Assembly (NCBI GenBank): GCA_964503405.1
Contig: CAZDAH010000006.1
Location: forward strand, 14,223-42,756
DNA from: an uncultured Ignavibacteria bacterium
Lineage (GTDB): Bacteria > Zixibacteria > MSB-5A5 > UBA10806
Direction: 5' to 3'
Length of the DNA: 28,534 nt
Part shown: positions 8,049 to 14,129 of the stretch, in pieces
Position numbering within the stretch: position 1 is the first letter of the stretch
Layout of the letters: each line of letters begins with the position of its first letter
Made by a program: the position numbers and the translations under genes
The notes under the pieces: generated by a model
Databases searched by the model: none
Told to the model about the DNA's origin: nothing
What the model saw: the letters and a program-made list of their open reading frames with translations, nothing else

Positions 8049-8691
8049 CGAAGATCTCCGAGGCAATGTTATCGTCGATAGCGATCTCGGTCGAGCCGAG
8101 CCGAAGGAGGTATGAGGGTTTTTTTTGATGCAGGATGAATTTTCCCCCGGGGATGACTCCCAGGTTTATCAGCCTGTTCAACCTCTGGTGATGGGGAGTC
8201 GTGATAAACACTATCTTCCCCTGGCTGCCCACGGGCAGTTCACGCAGCGACATCACTATCGGGGTCAACTCGCGCCGTGACGATTTGCAGCAATGTCCGG
8301 GAGGAATTCTTTTGCCGTGAGGACAGGTGGGAGGATGACCCAGGATGATACAGACCGATTCGGTCACGGCGGGATCGAGGACATGTTCGAAGGAGCAGCT
8401 GGTGGAGTGCAGGGCATCTCCTTTTAATTCGAGAATCTCGGAGAAGAGCCTTTCGGCCAGGCGATGCCGACGCACCAGGAGCTCGGCGTATTCGATCCCG
8501 GATGGTGTGAGATTGACTTTTTCCTCCTCGATTGCGACCAGCCCGCGCCCGGTTAACAGGCACATGTCGTCCTCCGAGGGAGGCGAAGCCAGGTTCAACT
8601 CGGAGACGCGGATAGGAAGCCTATCCTCTTCCATGGCCTTGTACATCGCTTCCATATATTCATGAATATGATGTTCCCTATGGTCTTCCAA
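8035..8691 (-). CDS. DtxR/IdeR-family metal-binding protein with C-terminal FeoA (SH3-like) domain
   Basis: RRHRLAERLF, HSTSCSFEH, LGHPPTCPHG..IP; C-terminal RLINLGVIPG...EIAID FeoA pattern. TTG start. Confidence 0.88.
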   Translation of the reverse strand: MEDHREHHIHEYMEAMYKAMEEDRLPIRVSELNLASPPSEDDMCLLTGRGLVAIEEEKVNLTPSGIEYAELLVRRHRLAERLFSEILELKGDALHSTSCSFEHVLDPAVTESVCIILGHPPTCPHGKRIPPGHCCKSSRRELTPIVMSLRELPVGSQGKIVFITTPHHQRLNRLINLGVIPGGKFILHQKKPSYLLRLGSTEIAIDDNIASEIFVRKI

Positions 8692-8875
8692 TATTCTTCT
8701 TCCTCTTCCTGAACAGCGACGAGAAAAAGCCGACTATCGCCGACGAGTCAATCCAGCCGTAACGGCAGTTGGGACAGCAGATTTTTTCGCAACCGCGGTT
8801 TATGGGACATCCCGCGCAGATGTTATCTCCGGAGCGATCGAACTGAAAACCGCAAAGAGGGCAGGTTACCACCAT
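8678..8875 (-). CDS. 65 aa cysteine-rich protein (8 Cys) between feoB and the DtxR-FeoA gene
   Basis: MVVTCPLCGFQFDRSGDNICAGCPINRGCEKICCPNCRYGWIDSSAIVGFFSSLFRKRKKNIGRP. ATG 8875 overlaps the feoB end; the stop overlaps the next start. The track ORF 8678..9007 is over-extended. Confidence 0.8.
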   Translation of the reverse strand: MVVTCPLCGFQFDRSGDNICAGCPINRGCEKICCPNCRYGWIDSSAIVGFFSSLFRKRKKNIGRP

Positions 8876-10833
8876 ATTCCCACTTCCCTCAGAATCAAAT
8901 TCATCAGCCCGCCGACAAGAATCGCGAAAGGTAAGATGAAAGCGATCATGGTAAACGCGGTTTTGTAGCCGCGCTCCTTGATTATTATGAAGAAATTGGC
9001 TATGCACGGCACAAACAGCGTAATCGTTATCATGGCTACGATAGCCCCGATCTGATCCAGCAGGCCCTCATCGAACAGCATCTTGAAGCCGGCCGCCCCG
9101 TAGTCGCGCCTGAGAAATCCGAGAATAAACGCCTCTGACGCCCTTGCGGGAAGGCCGAGAATACCGGTAACCACGGGTGAGAATACCCTCTGCAGCGTTA
9201 CCAGCAGATTCAATTTGTCGAGCGCGAATAGTATTAAAGTTCCCAGGACGAACAGGGGAACCGCCTCCCGCAAATACCATTCGAGCCTCATCAAAGTCTT
9301 CACAATCACGTTCTTTAATCTGGGCAGACGCAAAGGCGGAATTTCCAGTATGAAATCCGACGATCGTCCGGGGATAACTTTCGAAGACAGGTAGCCGACG
9401 AGAAACAACACTGCCAGCACGACAAAGAGCCAGACAGCCACCGCCCAGAGCGAAATAGATCCCAATATGCCCAGGGTCACCCCGAGCTGGGCCGAGCACG
9501 GTATGGCCAGAGTAAGCAGGAAAGTGACCATGAGTTTTTCCTTTTTGGTGCTCAGAATTCTCGCGGTGAGCACGGCCATGGTATCGCATCCCAGTCCCAG
9601 CACCATGGGCAGTACCGCGCGGCCGTTCAATCCGATTTTCTTGAATACTCTGTCGACCATTAAGGCAAGGCGGGGCAGATACCCCGAATCCTCAAGCACC
9701 CCGAAGGCCAGGAAAAAGGTCGAAACTATGGGCAAAATGAGGGCCAGGGCATAAGTGATGGCCATGGTGATTACGCCGTATTCTCCCACGAACAGATCGC
9801 GAACGAAATCCGACGGAATCCCGGCGAAAATACTCTCGAAAAACGGATTTATGAAATTGCCGAATAATTTGTTTTCTATCAACCCGACCAGGATTTGAGC
9901 GCCGAACACACCGACGAAATAATAGACTCCCAGAAGGACGAGCAGCAGAGCCGGGATGCCGTACAGCGGATGATGCGACAGTTGGCCGACCTGGCGCAGC
10001 AGCCGTCGCCCGGCCGATCCCCTTACAGAAACATGAGCGTCGACAATTTTCCTGACGTGATCGTTTCTGAGCTTGACTATATAGAAGCCGAGAGGCTCGG
10101 CCACTTTTGACAATATCGATGTCTTGATGCGTTCGATTTCATCCAACGACATTCTCGAAAGCGAGTCGATGAATCCCGACGGCAGGCCGTTGTTGTTGAT
10201 TAGATGGCTGATGGAGATGCCGCGAGAAGCGCCCTCCTGATCCCCGATGCTCGCCTGAATTCTGCCAATAGACTCCTCGATCGATTCTCCGAAATTGATC
10301 CGGATCGCCGGCACGGCCGCGCGGGAAATAGTTTGTTTCAAATCATCCACGCCGCGGCGTTCGATGGCCACGGTGGGAATTACCGGTATTCCCAGAACGC
10401 GGGAGAGCCCGTCGTAGTCAATGCTGAAACCCGCGCCGGCCGCCTCGTCGGACATATTCAGGGCGAGCACGACTTTGCGGCCATATTCCGCAAGCTGCGA
10501 GAGAAGGACAAGACCCCTCTGGAGATTTCGGGAATCGACCACGCATATAACCGGTGAATCCGGATAGCGCAGTATCAGATCTCTTGTGACGATTTCATCT
10601 TCGGAAACGGGCGTGAGCGAATCGGCGCCCGGGGAATCGAATAGTGGACGGCTGCCTTCGGCGGTTTTGATTACGCCGCAGACAAAATCGACGGTGGTGC
10701 CGGGGTAATTGGAGACTTCGACGTATCGCCCGGATAGTGCCCCGAAGAGCGCGGATTTCCCCACGTTGGGGTTTCCCACCAGCAATACGGGGGATTCATC
10801 GCGCGCTTTTAAAACGTTTCCGGGCATTTCCAT
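8866..10833 (-). CDS. feoB: Ferrous iron transport protein B
   Basis: G1 GNPNVGKS, G2 NYPGTTVD, G3 DSPG, G4 NMSD; membrane motifs LEDSGYLPR, LGLGCD, IPCSAQL, LFVPCIA. Confidence 0.97.
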   Translation of the reverse strand: MEMPGNVLKARDESPVLLVGNPNVGKSALFGALSGRYVEVSNYPGTTVDFVCGVIKTAEGSRPLFDSPGADSLTPVSEDEIVTRDLILRYPDSPVICVVDSRNLQRGLVLLSQLAEYGRKVVLALNMSDEAAGAGFSIDYDGLSRVLGIPVIPTVAIERRGVDDLKQTISRAAVPAIRINFGESIEESIGRIQASIGDQEGASRGISISHLINNNGLPSGFIDSLSRMSLDEIERIKTSILSKVAEPLGFYIVKLRNDHVRKIVDAHVSVRGSAGRRLLRQVGQLSHHPLYGIPALLLVLLGVYYFVGVFGAQILVGLIENKLFGNFINPFFESIFAGIPSDFVRDLFVGEYGVITMAITYALALILPIVSTFFLAFGVLEDSGYLPRLALMVDRVFKKIGLNGRAVLPMVLGLGCDTMAVLTARILSTKKEKLMVTFLLTLAIPCSAQLGVTLGILGSISLWAVAVWLFVVLAVLFLVGYLSSKVIPGRSSDFILEIPPLRLPRLKNVIVKTLMRLEWYLREAVPLFVLGTLILFALDKLNLLVTLQRVFSPVVTGILGLPARASEAFILGFLRRDYGAAGFKMLFDEGLLDQIGAIVAMITITLFVPCIANFFIIIKERGYKTAFTMIAFILPFAILVGGLMNLILREVGIWW

Positions 10834-10893: not shown

Positions 10894-11319
10894 TTAGCCG
10901 CATTTTTGGCAGAGTCCGTAAACCTCGAACCTGTGGCCTTCCGCCTTGAACCCGTAATTCGCGCTGATCTGCTTCAGCGATTTTTGAAAAGCGTCGGTGG
11001 AAAATTCCTCTGTTTTGCCGCAACTGGTGCAGACCAGATGACCGTGCTGGCTTTTGTCGATCGCTCTTTCGAAACGGGCGCGGCCGTCGCCGAAATTGAC
11101 CTCTCTGGCGATTCCGCACTCTGTGAAAAGGCGCAAGGTCCGATATACGGTGGAGAAACCGACCCGGGGATTTTTTCTGCGGATCATATCATGAAGCTCG
11201 TCAGCGGCGATATGCCTGGATGAGGAAAGAAACAGATCGAGTATGAGATTCCGCTGCTCCGTTTGTTTGAGCCCTCTCTGCCTGAGGTAGGCCGTGAGAA
11301 TTTCCTGTTCTTTTCTCAT
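10894..11319 (-). CDS. fur: Fur-family transcriptional regulator
   Basis: LKQTEQR, GFSTVYRTL, ARFE, HGHLVCTSCG, VYGLCQKC (two CxxC). Confidence 0.93.
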   Translation of the reverse strand: MRKEQEILTAYLRQRGLKQTEQRNLILDLFLSSSRHIAADELHDMIRRKNPRVGFSTVYRTLRLFTECGIAREVNFGDGRARFERAIDKSQHGHLVCTSCGKTEEFSTDAFQKSLKQISANYGFKAEGHRFEVYGLCQKCG

Positions 11320-11479: not shown

Positions 11480-12961
<1,482 letters not shown>

Positions 12962-12966
12962 TCAAC

Positions 12967-13683
12967 TCAATTTACGCTTTCTTCCGTCCAGATGAGGATT
13001 CGCCCGCAGCTTTCGCAGGAGAATATCCGATCGCCCCGTCTGATTTCCTGAATTCGTTGCGGCGGGATCTGCTTGAAACATCCTCCGCAGGCTTTCTTGC
13101 GGATAGGCACGACGACCAGTCCGCCTTTTCCTTTTCTGACTCTCTCGTAGACTCCGATGATTTGCCTGTTGATATCCTTGATGATGCTCTTTCTTATCTC
13201 CATCTTTTCGTCGATTTTGGCCTGCAGGGTCGATTCCTCGGCCCGCAGCGCTTTCAGCTGGCCGGAATTGCTGGTTTTGGAATTTTCCAGGTTTTTTGTC
13301 AGTTCGCCGATATTCTCTTTTAATTCGTCGAGCCGGGACATCAGGGTCAGGATCCTTTCCTCTTTATCGGCGATCTCCCTTTTCTTGGAGTCGATCTCAG
13401 CGATGAGGGCGTCGTATTCTTTATTGGTTTTTATGATCTTCATCTGAGACTGGAATCTCTCCAACTCCTGCCTATTGGCCTCGATATCCAGTTCCAGAGA
13501 CTTCTGTTCGAGTTCCGACTCCAATTTGGCCGTTTCGTTTTCGGCGATAGATGTTTCCAGATCAGATACTTCTTTTTCCAGATTACGAATCATGTCCGGC
13601 AGATAAATTCGGGACCTTTCCAATTCCCCGAGATGATCATCGATTTCCTGCAGATTCAAAAGCAACGTTAGATCCTTTTCCAA
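12967..13683 (-). CDS. Coiled-coil protein with C4-type zinc ribbon (DUF164 / CT398-HP0958-like)
   Basis: Long heptad region, then CGGCF...CESCGRIL; NKEYDAL and YERVR motifs. TTG start with GGAGG at 13693-13689. Confidence 0.9.
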   Translation of the reverse strand: MEKDLTLLLNLQEIDDHLGELERSRIYLPDMIRNLEKEVSDLETSIAENETAKLESELEQKSLELDIEANRQELERFQSQMKIIKTNKEYDALIAEIDSKKREIADKEERILTLMSRLDELKENIGELTKNLENSKTSNSGQLKALRAEESTLQAKIDEKMEIRKSIIKDINRQIIGVYERVRKGKGGLVVVPIRKKACGGCFKQIPPQRIQEIRRGDRIFSCESCGRILIWTEESVN

Positions 13684-13704
13684 GTCATCCTCCAGCTACG
13701 CTAT

Positions 13705-13728
13705 AAAAAAAGCGCCTGTAATCGGCGC
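13705..13728 (-). terminator. Intrinsic terminator
   Basis: Minus-strand GCGCC-GAUUACA-GGCGC followed by U7. Confidence 0.75.
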
Positions 13729-13846
13729 ACTTTATTTTTCCGGATGGAATCGTGTTTTGAGCGGTTGTCCGTCGCGAACAGAGGGATTCAATCAATTTCA
13801 ATCTCTCCCAACAGTATTTCACACGAAACCCGATCATATTTTCAAA

Positions 13847-13923
13847 TGGTGGGCAATACTGGACTCGAACCAGTGACCTTTCGGATGTGAACCGAACGCT
13901 CTAACCAACTGAGCTAATCGCCC
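13847..13923 (-). tRNA. tRNA-Val(CAC)
   Basis: GGGCGATTAGCTCAGTTGGTTAGAGCG-TTCGG-TT-CAC-AT-CCGAA...GGTTCGAGTCC...GCCCACCA; 77 nt with encoded CCA. Confidence 0.96.
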
Positions 13924-13928
13924 TATCC

Positions 13929-14005
13929 TGGTGGGCCCACCAGGATTCGAACCTGGGACCCACTGATTATGAGTCAGTTGCTCTAACCAGCTGAGCTATG
14001 GGCCC
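13929..14005 (-). tRNA. tRNA with CAU anticodon, most likely tRNA-Ile2 (lysidine type)
   Basis: GGGCCCATAGCTCAG...ACTGA-CT-CAT-AA-TCAGT...GGTTCGAATCC...GGGCCCACCA. The paired 1:72 position excludes initiator tRNA; C4:G69 and C5:G68 are the TilS determinants of Ile2. Confidence 0.9.
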
Positions 14006-14022
14006 AACCGTCTTAGCAAAAT

Positions 14023-14051
14023 AAAATAGAGGCACGGAATTTGTATGTCAA
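14023..14051 (-). promoter_or_regulatory. Sigma70-type promoter of the tRNA pair
   Basis: TTGACA (14051-14046), 17 nt, TATTTT (14028-14023), 17 nt upstream of the first tRNA. Confidence 0.7.
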
Positions 14052-14129
14052 GCTTTTTCAACCATCGTAACGGGCGAAACTGGATGTTTTCCGCAGATCG
14101 AGGGCGAAGCGCCGGATATTCCGGCAGAT

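Follow-up and report, generated by a model that had tools for sequence, protein, structure and literature searches.

An open reading frame crossing the terminator between tRNA-Val and a zinc-ribbon/guaB gene pair in Zixibacteria: a possible ribosome-dependent attenuator in a tRNA–mRNA operon

Genomic Organization of the Locus

The stretch of DNA analyzed in this study, referred to as the window, is 28,534 nucleotides long. Its source phylum is Zixibacteria according to the placement of its zinc-ribbon protein, the closest relative of which was 78% identical. A gene encoding an ECF-type sigma factor (14681–14130, minus strand; Pfam Sigma70_r2/r4) is located ahead of two tRNA genes, one with a CAU anticodon (13929–14005, minus strand; 75.4 bits; designated Met by ARAGORN) and one encoding tRNA-Val(CAC) (13847–13923, minus strand; 70.8 bits). 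The spacer under study (163 nt; 13846–13684, minus strand) separates tRNA-Val from a gene encoding a CT398/HP0958-type coiled-coil and C4 zinc-ribbon protein of 238 aa (12967–13683, minus strand; TTG start at 13683), which matched the Pfam families PF24481 (1.1e-14) and PF02591 (2e-13). After a gap of 23 nt from the zinc-ribbon stop codon, guaB follows, encoding an IMP dehydrogenase with a CBS pair (11480–12943, minus strand; PF00478, 1e-162). Downstream of guaB, a Fur-family regulator gene (10894–11319, minus strand) and feoB (8866–10833, minus strand) were identified, and a small Cys-rich ORF (8678–9007, minus strand) overlaps the end of feoB.

The 1:72 end of the tRNA with the CAU anticodon (13929–14005, minus strand) is paired and its anticodon stem lacks GGG/CCC, indicating that this tRNA is not of the initiator type. 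Its acceptor stem, GGGCCC (C4, C5), is as similar to that of tRNA-Ile2 (lysidine) as to that of elongator Met.

Scans of genome and metagenome collections yielded 128 loci carrying a related zinc-ribbon gene, and the sequences behind the comparison were all derived from metagenome-assembled genomes. The order of promoter, tRNA-Met(CAU), tRNA-Val(CAC), spacer with terminator, CT398-type zinc-ribbon gene, and guaB was conserved across the phylum. tRNA-Val(CAC) was found directly upstream of the zinc-ribbon gene phylum-wide; it was positioned 133–255 nt 5′ of that gene in 96 of the 104 loci analyzed, preceded by tRNA(CAU) in most Zixibacteria loci, and the distance was 345 nt in one locus. guaB directly followed the zinc-ribbon gene in 98 of 101 loci. 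A Latescibacterota locus (L012) had the segment with the tRNA, the terminator, and the zinc-ribbon gene in common with Zixibacteria. The tRNA and protein genes occupy the same strand, and consensus scans placed a single promoter before the tRNAs, a layout that would be that of a mixed tRNA–mRNA operon. When sequencing runs were searched, the window sequence was matched in DNA metagenomes only and in no RNA runs.

Immediately 3′ of the tRNA CCA lies a nearly invariant block, TTTGAAAATATGAT (13833–13846, minus strand), which includes the ATG of the leader ORF described below. Eight spacers from the clade of the window were aligned (A1; mean column identity, 73%). Of the 14 alignment columns covering this block, 12 were invariant, compared with approximately 50% identity over the remaining spacer. 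The block could also be a tRNA 3′-processing site.

Promoter and Terminator

The tRNA operon is preceded by a sigma-70-type promoter, TTGACA-17-TATTTT (14023–14051, minus strand; 10/12 matches), with an A-rich stretch upstream. Of 73 related loci, 60 had CTTGACA-17-TATTTT/TATTAT approximately 45 nt 5′ of their first tRNA. A consensus promoter scan of the window detected none between tRNA-Val and the zinc-ribbon gene. Among the relatives, a weak sigma-70-like match within the spacer was observed in 12 of 76 spacers, at scattered positions. The promoter assignment is based on matching to the sigma-70 consensus only, and other sigma factors are possible.

According to ARAGORN, tRNA-Val stands alone upstream in 12 loci (L003, L004, L005, L019, L046, L070, L072, L078, L082, L088, L095, and L097). 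In these lineages, tRNA(CAU) and a consensus promoter at the usual distance are both lacking, so the source of transcription differs there.

It is also conceivable that a promoter resides within the spacer. TTGAAA, located right after the tRNA, would then be the −35 element, the leader transcript would be short, the leader ORF would be nearly leaderless in some lineages, and the zinc-ribbon gene and guaB would form an operon of their own, with the terminator as its 5′ attenuator. Consistent with this reading, TTGAAA or TTGATT immediately follows the tRNA in many clades, and 5 of the 12 matching spacers have a −35-like hexamer at position 1–2 with a −10-like hexamer 17–18 nt further on. The leader ATG is approximately 8–10 nt past that −10 in the L011 clade and L086. 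Because TTGAxx is combined there with a good −10, which would put the leader ATG a few nucleotides past the transcription start, a spacer promoter was kept as a minority rival. However, the −10 candidate of the window, TGAAAT, is without the essential A at position 2, the matches elsewhere are few and varied in position, and the ATG of the window's clade would sit inside the promoter spacer and hence upstream of the transcription start. This reading is considered improbable.

The intrinsic terminator of the spacer (13705–13728, minus strand) is composed of a G+C-rich hairpin, GCGCC-GATTACA-GGCGC (13728–13712), and a U7 tract (13711–13705), and its stem can be extended by an A-rich tract upstream. 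The terminator positions formed standard pairs in 92% of the cells of A1. A hairpin with a U-tract was located just ahead of the zinc-ribbon ribosome-binding site in all 76 distinct spacers (76/76), with a median of 23 nt from the end of the U-tract to the zinc-ribbon start codon. As stated in a preliminary description of this DNA, exactly 11 nt (ATAGCGTAGCT) extend from the U-tract to the GGAGG Shine-Dalgarno sequence (13693–13689), leaving no space for a separate promoter after the terminator. The same description proposed that expression of the zinc-ribbon gene and guaB depends on read-through, as in an attenuator. This proposal appears reasonable, because the terminator is conserved, there is no room for a promoter behind it, and the sole conserved promoter is located before the tRNAs. 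It gains further weight from the presence of this arrangement throughout the phylum.

Two further features of the terminator region were observed. The hairpin (13712–13728) was also called as a terminator on the plus strand, where it is followed by ACTTTATTTT, because the A-rich tract 13729–13741 precedes the hairpin on the minus strand; there is no convergent gene here that would end at it. In the RBG-1-like locus L029 (L029:1289–1476), approximately 45 nt are additionally inserted between the U-tract and the zinc-ribbon start. This insertion is a near-perfect inverted repeat (GGTCAACAATACTCAACAATG...CATTGTTGAGTA), and the leader ORF, here 52 codons long, is open across it.

Leader ORF of the Window

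The stretch is occupied by an unannotated leader ORF of 50 codons (13685–13837, minus strand) with the product MIGFRVKYCWERLKLIESLCSRRTTAQNTIPSGKIKCADYRRFFYSVAGG, which the preliminary description had missed. Its ATG (13837–13835) is 9 nt past the CCA of tRNA-Val. The ORF crosses the terminator hairpin and the U-tract, the Us of which decode as Phe-Phe, and its TGA ends 1 nt ahead of the zinc-ribbon TTG (GGAGGATGAcTTG), with the GGAGG Shine-Dalgarno of the zinc-ribbon gene (13689–13693, minus strand) inside the final leader codons. A complete ATG ORF of at least 50 codons occurred by chance in 47 of 20,000 dinucleotide-preserving shuffles.

A Shine-Dalgarno sequence was absent at the leader start in the window's clade. 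Many genes of the window are also without one, including guaB and feoB, which have none within 20 nt, suggesting that Shine-Dalgarno-independent initiation is common in this genome. The leader start is therefore not disqualified by the lack of this element. The leader peptide of the window had no Pfam match, and an exact look-up of six leader peptides, including that of the window, in a collection of 15 billion proteins returned zero matches.

On the opposite strand, a 48-codon ATG ORF (13744–13890, plus strand) extends over the spacer into the antisense of tRNA-Val. It was treated as a chance occurrence because antisense ORFs were not enriched in the relatives (5% at p < 0.05).

Leader ORFs in Related Loci

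ORFs of the same kind were found in relatives whose spacers cannot be aligned to that of the window. Depending on the clade, they start 9, 14, 26, or 40 nt after the tRNA; they comprise 30–60 codons, cross the terminator, and finish near the zinc-ribbon start. An ATG ORF reaching the terminator was present in 66 of the 76 distinct spacers, with a median length of 44.5 codons, and the median distance from the leader ATG to the terminator was approximately 89 nt. In most spacers bearing such an ORF, the stop codon was within approximately 20 nt of the zinc-ribbon start. The remaining 10 spacers had no ATG ORF reaching the terminator, and the ORFs of several others ended within the hairpin or immediately ahead of it.

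The longest sense-strand ATG ORF had a median length of 40 codons among the 76 unique Zixibacteria spacers. When each spacer was compared with its own shuffles, ORF length was significant (p < 0.05) on the sense strand in 59% of the spacers and on the antisense strand in 5% (Mann-Whitney, 2e-17); after clustering, significant ORFs were found in 13 of 32 clusters for the sense strand versus 1 of 32 for the antisense strand (binomial, 1.7e-9), and the most conservative, coarsest clustering gave 3 of 8 significant clusters (P = 0.006), all of these values being only partly corrected for shared ancestry and thus inflated. Clustering at 55% identity was discarded because it lumped nearly all spacers. 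A looser first test, which counted any ATG ORF beginning 50 nt or more ahead of the terminator, had a high chance rate of 0.05–0.4 per sequence and was superseded by the stricter tests.

Within the window's clade, seven sequences, of which neighbors differed at 8–42 of 90 sites, were free of indels and in-frame stops over the first 30 codons, and the other two frames carried 26 and 10 stops. Under random placement of the same numbers of substitutions, the probability that the frame is kept open along the tree was approximately 1.3e-3. In three of the four clades (A, B, and D), variable sites showed no preference for any codon position, and synonymous changes were no commoner in the leader frame than in the two others. 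Because the peptide showed no purifying selection in clades A, B, and D and a weak signal in clade C, a conserved small protein was rejected. These comparisons establish the anatomy of the locus and its conservation, and they suggest, indirectly, that the frame has been selected to stay open while the peptide has not been selected. The selected feature in this leader-ORF signature, as judged from the substitution patterns, would be the open, translatable frame and not the peptide sequence, as expected if the act of translation alone matters. A conserved ORF upstream of a terminator points to ribosome-mediated rather than ligand-mediated control.

A leader-peptide attenuator of the trp type found no support either, as the leaders contained no regulatory codon run and RNAalifold detected no conserved alternative (antiterminator) helix. 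The peptides differed between clades without a common run. In a check for a self-sensing loop, codons corresponding to the two tRNAs, GTG for tRNA-Val(CAC) and ATA for tRNA(CAU), were not enriched in the leaders, and ATG codons, likewise examined for tRNA(CAU), were approximately twofold enriched compared with the other frames. Inspection of the window by eye for a pause tract ahead of the hairpin revealed no U-rich or G-rich tract that stood out. In L053 (L053:1041–1200), CTG is present where the relatives L055 and L067 have the leader ATG (TTTGATAATATGA), and the start is either lost or non-canonical.

The spacer could also be viewed as the source of a stable sRNA, cut from the tRNA precursor as a 3′ external transcribed spacer, ending at the terminator and acting in trans, for example as a sponge. 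The position is that of 3′ETS-leuZ of glyW-cysT-leuZ in E. coli, which extends from the last tRNA to a terminator with a U-tail (PMC6191717). However, no conserved seed candidate was found beyond the first 14 nt and the terminator, and an sRNA would leave unexplained both the sense-strand enrichment of ORFs and the close, conserved linkage to the downstream genes. We consider an sRNA of this kind very unlikely.

RNA Structure of the Spacer

The preliminary description folded the segment after tRNA-Val into a three-way junction of the helices P1, P2, and P3 and named a riboswitch, an attenuator, or a small RNA as candidates. Its coordinates and pairings were accurate, including those of P1 (13826–13821 with 13755–13750), and P1, P2 (with one A.C mismatch), and P3 can indeed be drawn (13750–13826, minus strand). 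The junction itself found no support beyond chance or from conservation, and the hairpins are local ones within the ORF, with a structure that is not conserved. The minimum free energy of the 147-nt stretch was −35.4 kcal/mol, compared with −31.9 ± 3.8 kcal/mol for shuffles (z = −0.92; 33 of 200 shuffles as good or better), and the three-way junction was not the minimum free energy fold. It was the minimum free energy fold of the 88-nt core (z = −0.56; 49 of 200 shuffles as good or better), of which the centroid keeps P1 only.

Searching the whole window against Rfam 15 at the gathering score returned only the two tRNAs, and a search at E ≤ 10 on 501 nt (13600–14100) returned, beyond the tRNAs, chance-level matches far under the gathering score. 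Comparison by eye with the purine, ZTP, PRPP/ppGpp, and c-di-GMP consensus patterns had previously given no match either. In the relatives, the junction helices turned out to be neither conserved nor covarying. Standard pairs were formed in 56% (P1), 52% (P2), and 53% (P3) of the cells of A1, versus 92% for the terminator; the covariation score of the three helices in A1 was not above control, being reached by 89 of 500 shuffles; and RNAalifold retained the terminator as the single conserved helix, dropping P1, P2, and P3. A hairpin at the P3 position recurs in L001, L015, and L017 with another sequence and is degenerate elsewhere. The proposed contact of the P3 loop CGAC with GUUG is specific to the window, as the P3 loop is different in each relative.

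A conserved three-way-junction RNA or riboswitch was accordingly rejected as the sensor, and a structured-RNA reading is not supported by the Rfam, folding, helix conservation, or covariation results. In that reading, a ligand, perhaps a purine nucleotide, would bind the junction and control the terminator. The drawable helices and the presence of guaB downstream fit such a device, and the sister-clade hairpin described below implies that some RNA structure matters in this region. However, the junction and loop sequences, which would form the ligand pocket, are the least conserved portions, the loop of the sister-clade hairpin (clade C) is likewise not conserved, and no finding points toward the purine-nucleotide ligand that had been guessed. 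A ligand-binding riboswitch at this position is considered highly unlikely.

In a sister clade of nine loci (L006, L007, L008, L009, L020, L024, L062, L064, and L066), the leader Shine-Dalgarno and ATG (GG.GGATGAAT) pair with ATTCATCC.CC approximately 25 nt downstream (L006:2868–3000). This hairpin of 10 bp was kept in nine sequences, with a fully diverged loop. It does not look like an aptamer and may gate the initiation of leader translation in that clade. Possibly, P2 of the window (GGGAGAGATT/AATCCCTC) is what is left of this hairpin in degenerate form.

Possible Role of the Leader ORF

Judged at the level of sequence, the stretch forms the end of a tRNA operon and carries a leader ORF through a conserved terminator; it is not a conserved folded RNA or riboswitch. 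Our preferred interpretation, to which we assign a probability of roughly 0.45, is a ribosome-dependent attenuator of the pyrBI type inside a tRNA–mRNA operon. As in that type, the ORF (13837–13685) encloses the terminator (13728–13705) and has its stop 1 nt before the TTG. Translating ribosomes would probably set the extent of transcription into guaB. We infer that the leader ORF is translated, that the terminator is partial, and that ribosomes modulate it.

Transcription would begin at the conserved strong promoter ahead of tRNA-Met(CAU) and tRNA-Val(CAC) and proceed into the 50-codon ORF, which starts nine nt past the tRNA-Val CCA, spans the terminator, and meets the zinc-ribbon gene, followed by guaB. 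With no ribosome close behind RNA polymerase, the hairpin would form and transcription would terminate, the products being the tRNAs and a short non-stop trailer. A ribosome translating the leader near the polymerase would instead cover the 5′ arm of the hairpin, so that termination would be suppressed and the zinc-ribbon gene and guaB would be transcribed. The abutting stop and start codons (UGAcUUG) may also pass ribosomes to the weak TTG start by translational coupling. The read-through fraction would thus report how tightly ribosomes trail the polymerase, and the net effect would be to tie guanine-nucleotide synthesis to the activity of the tRNA promoter and to translational capacity. A previous study demonstrated that termination fell from approximately 90% to less than 10% when a stop codon 28 nt ahead of a terminator was moved to within 5 nt of it (PMC4824070). 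Expression of guaB in E. coli is tied to growth rate by a promoter with rRNA-like architecture (PMC2885671), which provides a precedent for the proposed physiological logic.

Several features weigh against ribosome-dependent attenuation. Ribosomes seldom catch the polymerase in the first 100 nt unless a pause intervenes (PMC4824070), and given this limit the distance of approximately 109 nt from the leader ATG to the terminator hairpin in the window counts, on our analysis, against coupling. At such a distance, the expected default would be termination with tunable read-through, which suits a tRNA operon. The ORF is not universal, the leader start lacks a Shine-Dalgarno sequence, and the block containing the ATG could be maintained for tRNA 3′ processing; these points could also be counted against an attenuator, as could the failure to find an NTP-sensitive pause tract, a regulatory codon run, or a conserved antiterminator hairpin.

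In a simpler reading, the spacer is a plain tRNA-operon trailer with its terminator, which ends most tRNA transcripts, constitutive leak feeds the zinc-ribbon gene and guaB, and the ORF is non-regulatory, being tolerated, just protecting the processed downstream mRNA, or coupling ribosomes to the TTG. The terminator as the sole conserved RNA structure and the lack of peptide conservation are compatible with such a trailer. So are the 10 of 76 spacers that lack the ORF and still have the terminator and the cassette, the position of most ORF stops near the zinc-ribbon start, which fits coupling, and the existence of tRNA–mRNA operons without attenuation, such as thrU-tyrU-glyT-thrT-tufB (PMC6134099). 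However, a plain trailer leaves unexplained why significant long ATG ORFs are approximately 12-fold more frequent on the sense than on the antisense strand and why the frame is open and free of indels in the window's clade, and a ribosome crossing the hairpin is expected to affect termination (PMC4824070). A plain trailer is regarded as rather unlikely.

A more specific version of ribosome-dependent attenuation can be formulated for the phylum as a whole. Excision of tRNA-Val would make the 5′ end of a nearly leaderless mRNA with a leader of 30–60 codons, and translation of this leader across the terminator of the tRNA operon would gauge ribosome and tRNA capacity, or GTP supply, and set transcription of the CT398-type zinc-ribbon gene and the IMP dehydrogenase gene. 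Such a Zixibacteria-wide device is doubtful; if true, it would be a ribosome-sensing attenuator built into a tRNA trailer, through which the output of the translation machinery would directly govern the synthesis of guanine nucleotides.

Ribosome-dependent attenuation at this locus, if true, would account for guaB expression in these genomes, where the gene has no separate promoter. The leaders add a class of conserved, unannotated ORFs that gene callers overlook. They also give reason for caution, as a plausible junction fold before a metabolic gene can be an ORF with the terminator as its sole conserved RNA structure.

Comparison with Known Systems

The locus has the typical context of purine-related riboswitches, a spacer before a purine-pathway gene that ends in a terminator. 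It differs from the purine (RF00167), ZTP, ykkC-type PRPP/ppGpp, and c-di-GMP riboswitches in that no covariance-model match was obtained at the thresholds tried and no conserved aptamer-like structure was present. The stretch from the last tRNA to an intrinsic terminator is shared with 3′ETS-leuZ (PMC6191717), which is short, noncoding, and trans-acting, whereas the trailer described here is approximately 140 nt long, contains an apparently selected ORF, and is tightly linked to the downstream genes.

In the frd/ampC arrangement, as proposed here, the terminator of the upstream unit doubles as an attenuator of the next gene. In the early 1980s, Jaurin, Grundstrom, Normark, and colleagues reportedly identified the E. 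coli frd terminator as the ampC attenuator, and read-through was reported to rise with growth rate. The ampC attenuator is also mentioned in PMC8430887. The ampC gene differs from the present locus in being transcribed from a separate promoter within frdD and in lacking a long leader ORF that spans the hairpin. At the Zixibacteria locus, a tRNA operon takes the place of the upstream unit.

In thrU-tyrU-glyT-thrT-tufB, tRNA and protein genes are transcribed from one upstream promoter (PMC6134099), and the sole conserved promoter of the Zixibacteria cassette similarly precedes the tRNAs. No terminator-spanning leader ORF has been described for the tufB operon, in contrast to the conserved terminator and ORF found here between the last tRNA and the protein gene.

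The closest mechanistic model is the pyrBI attenuator of E. coli, in which the 135-bp pyrL ORF contains the terminator and the hairpin is kept from folding by a ribosome close behind RNA polymerase (PMC4824070; PMC5021804, citing Roland, Liu, Turnbough, 1988). The pyrBI operon and the present locus have in common a terminator inside a short leader ORF (135 bp in pyrL, 153 bp here) that ends at the first structural gene, and a nucleotide-biosynthesis gene downstream. They differ in that the leader described here has no dedicated promoter, being embedded in a tRNA-operon trailer, that a U-rich or other NTP-sensitive pause tract was not identified in it, and that its first downstream gene encodes a zinc-ribbon protein. 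Ribosome-coupled attenuation has been described for a small number of enterobacterial operons, pyrBI among them; if the proposed mechanism is true, it would also operate in an uncultured phylum and in a new context, a tRNA-operon trailer.
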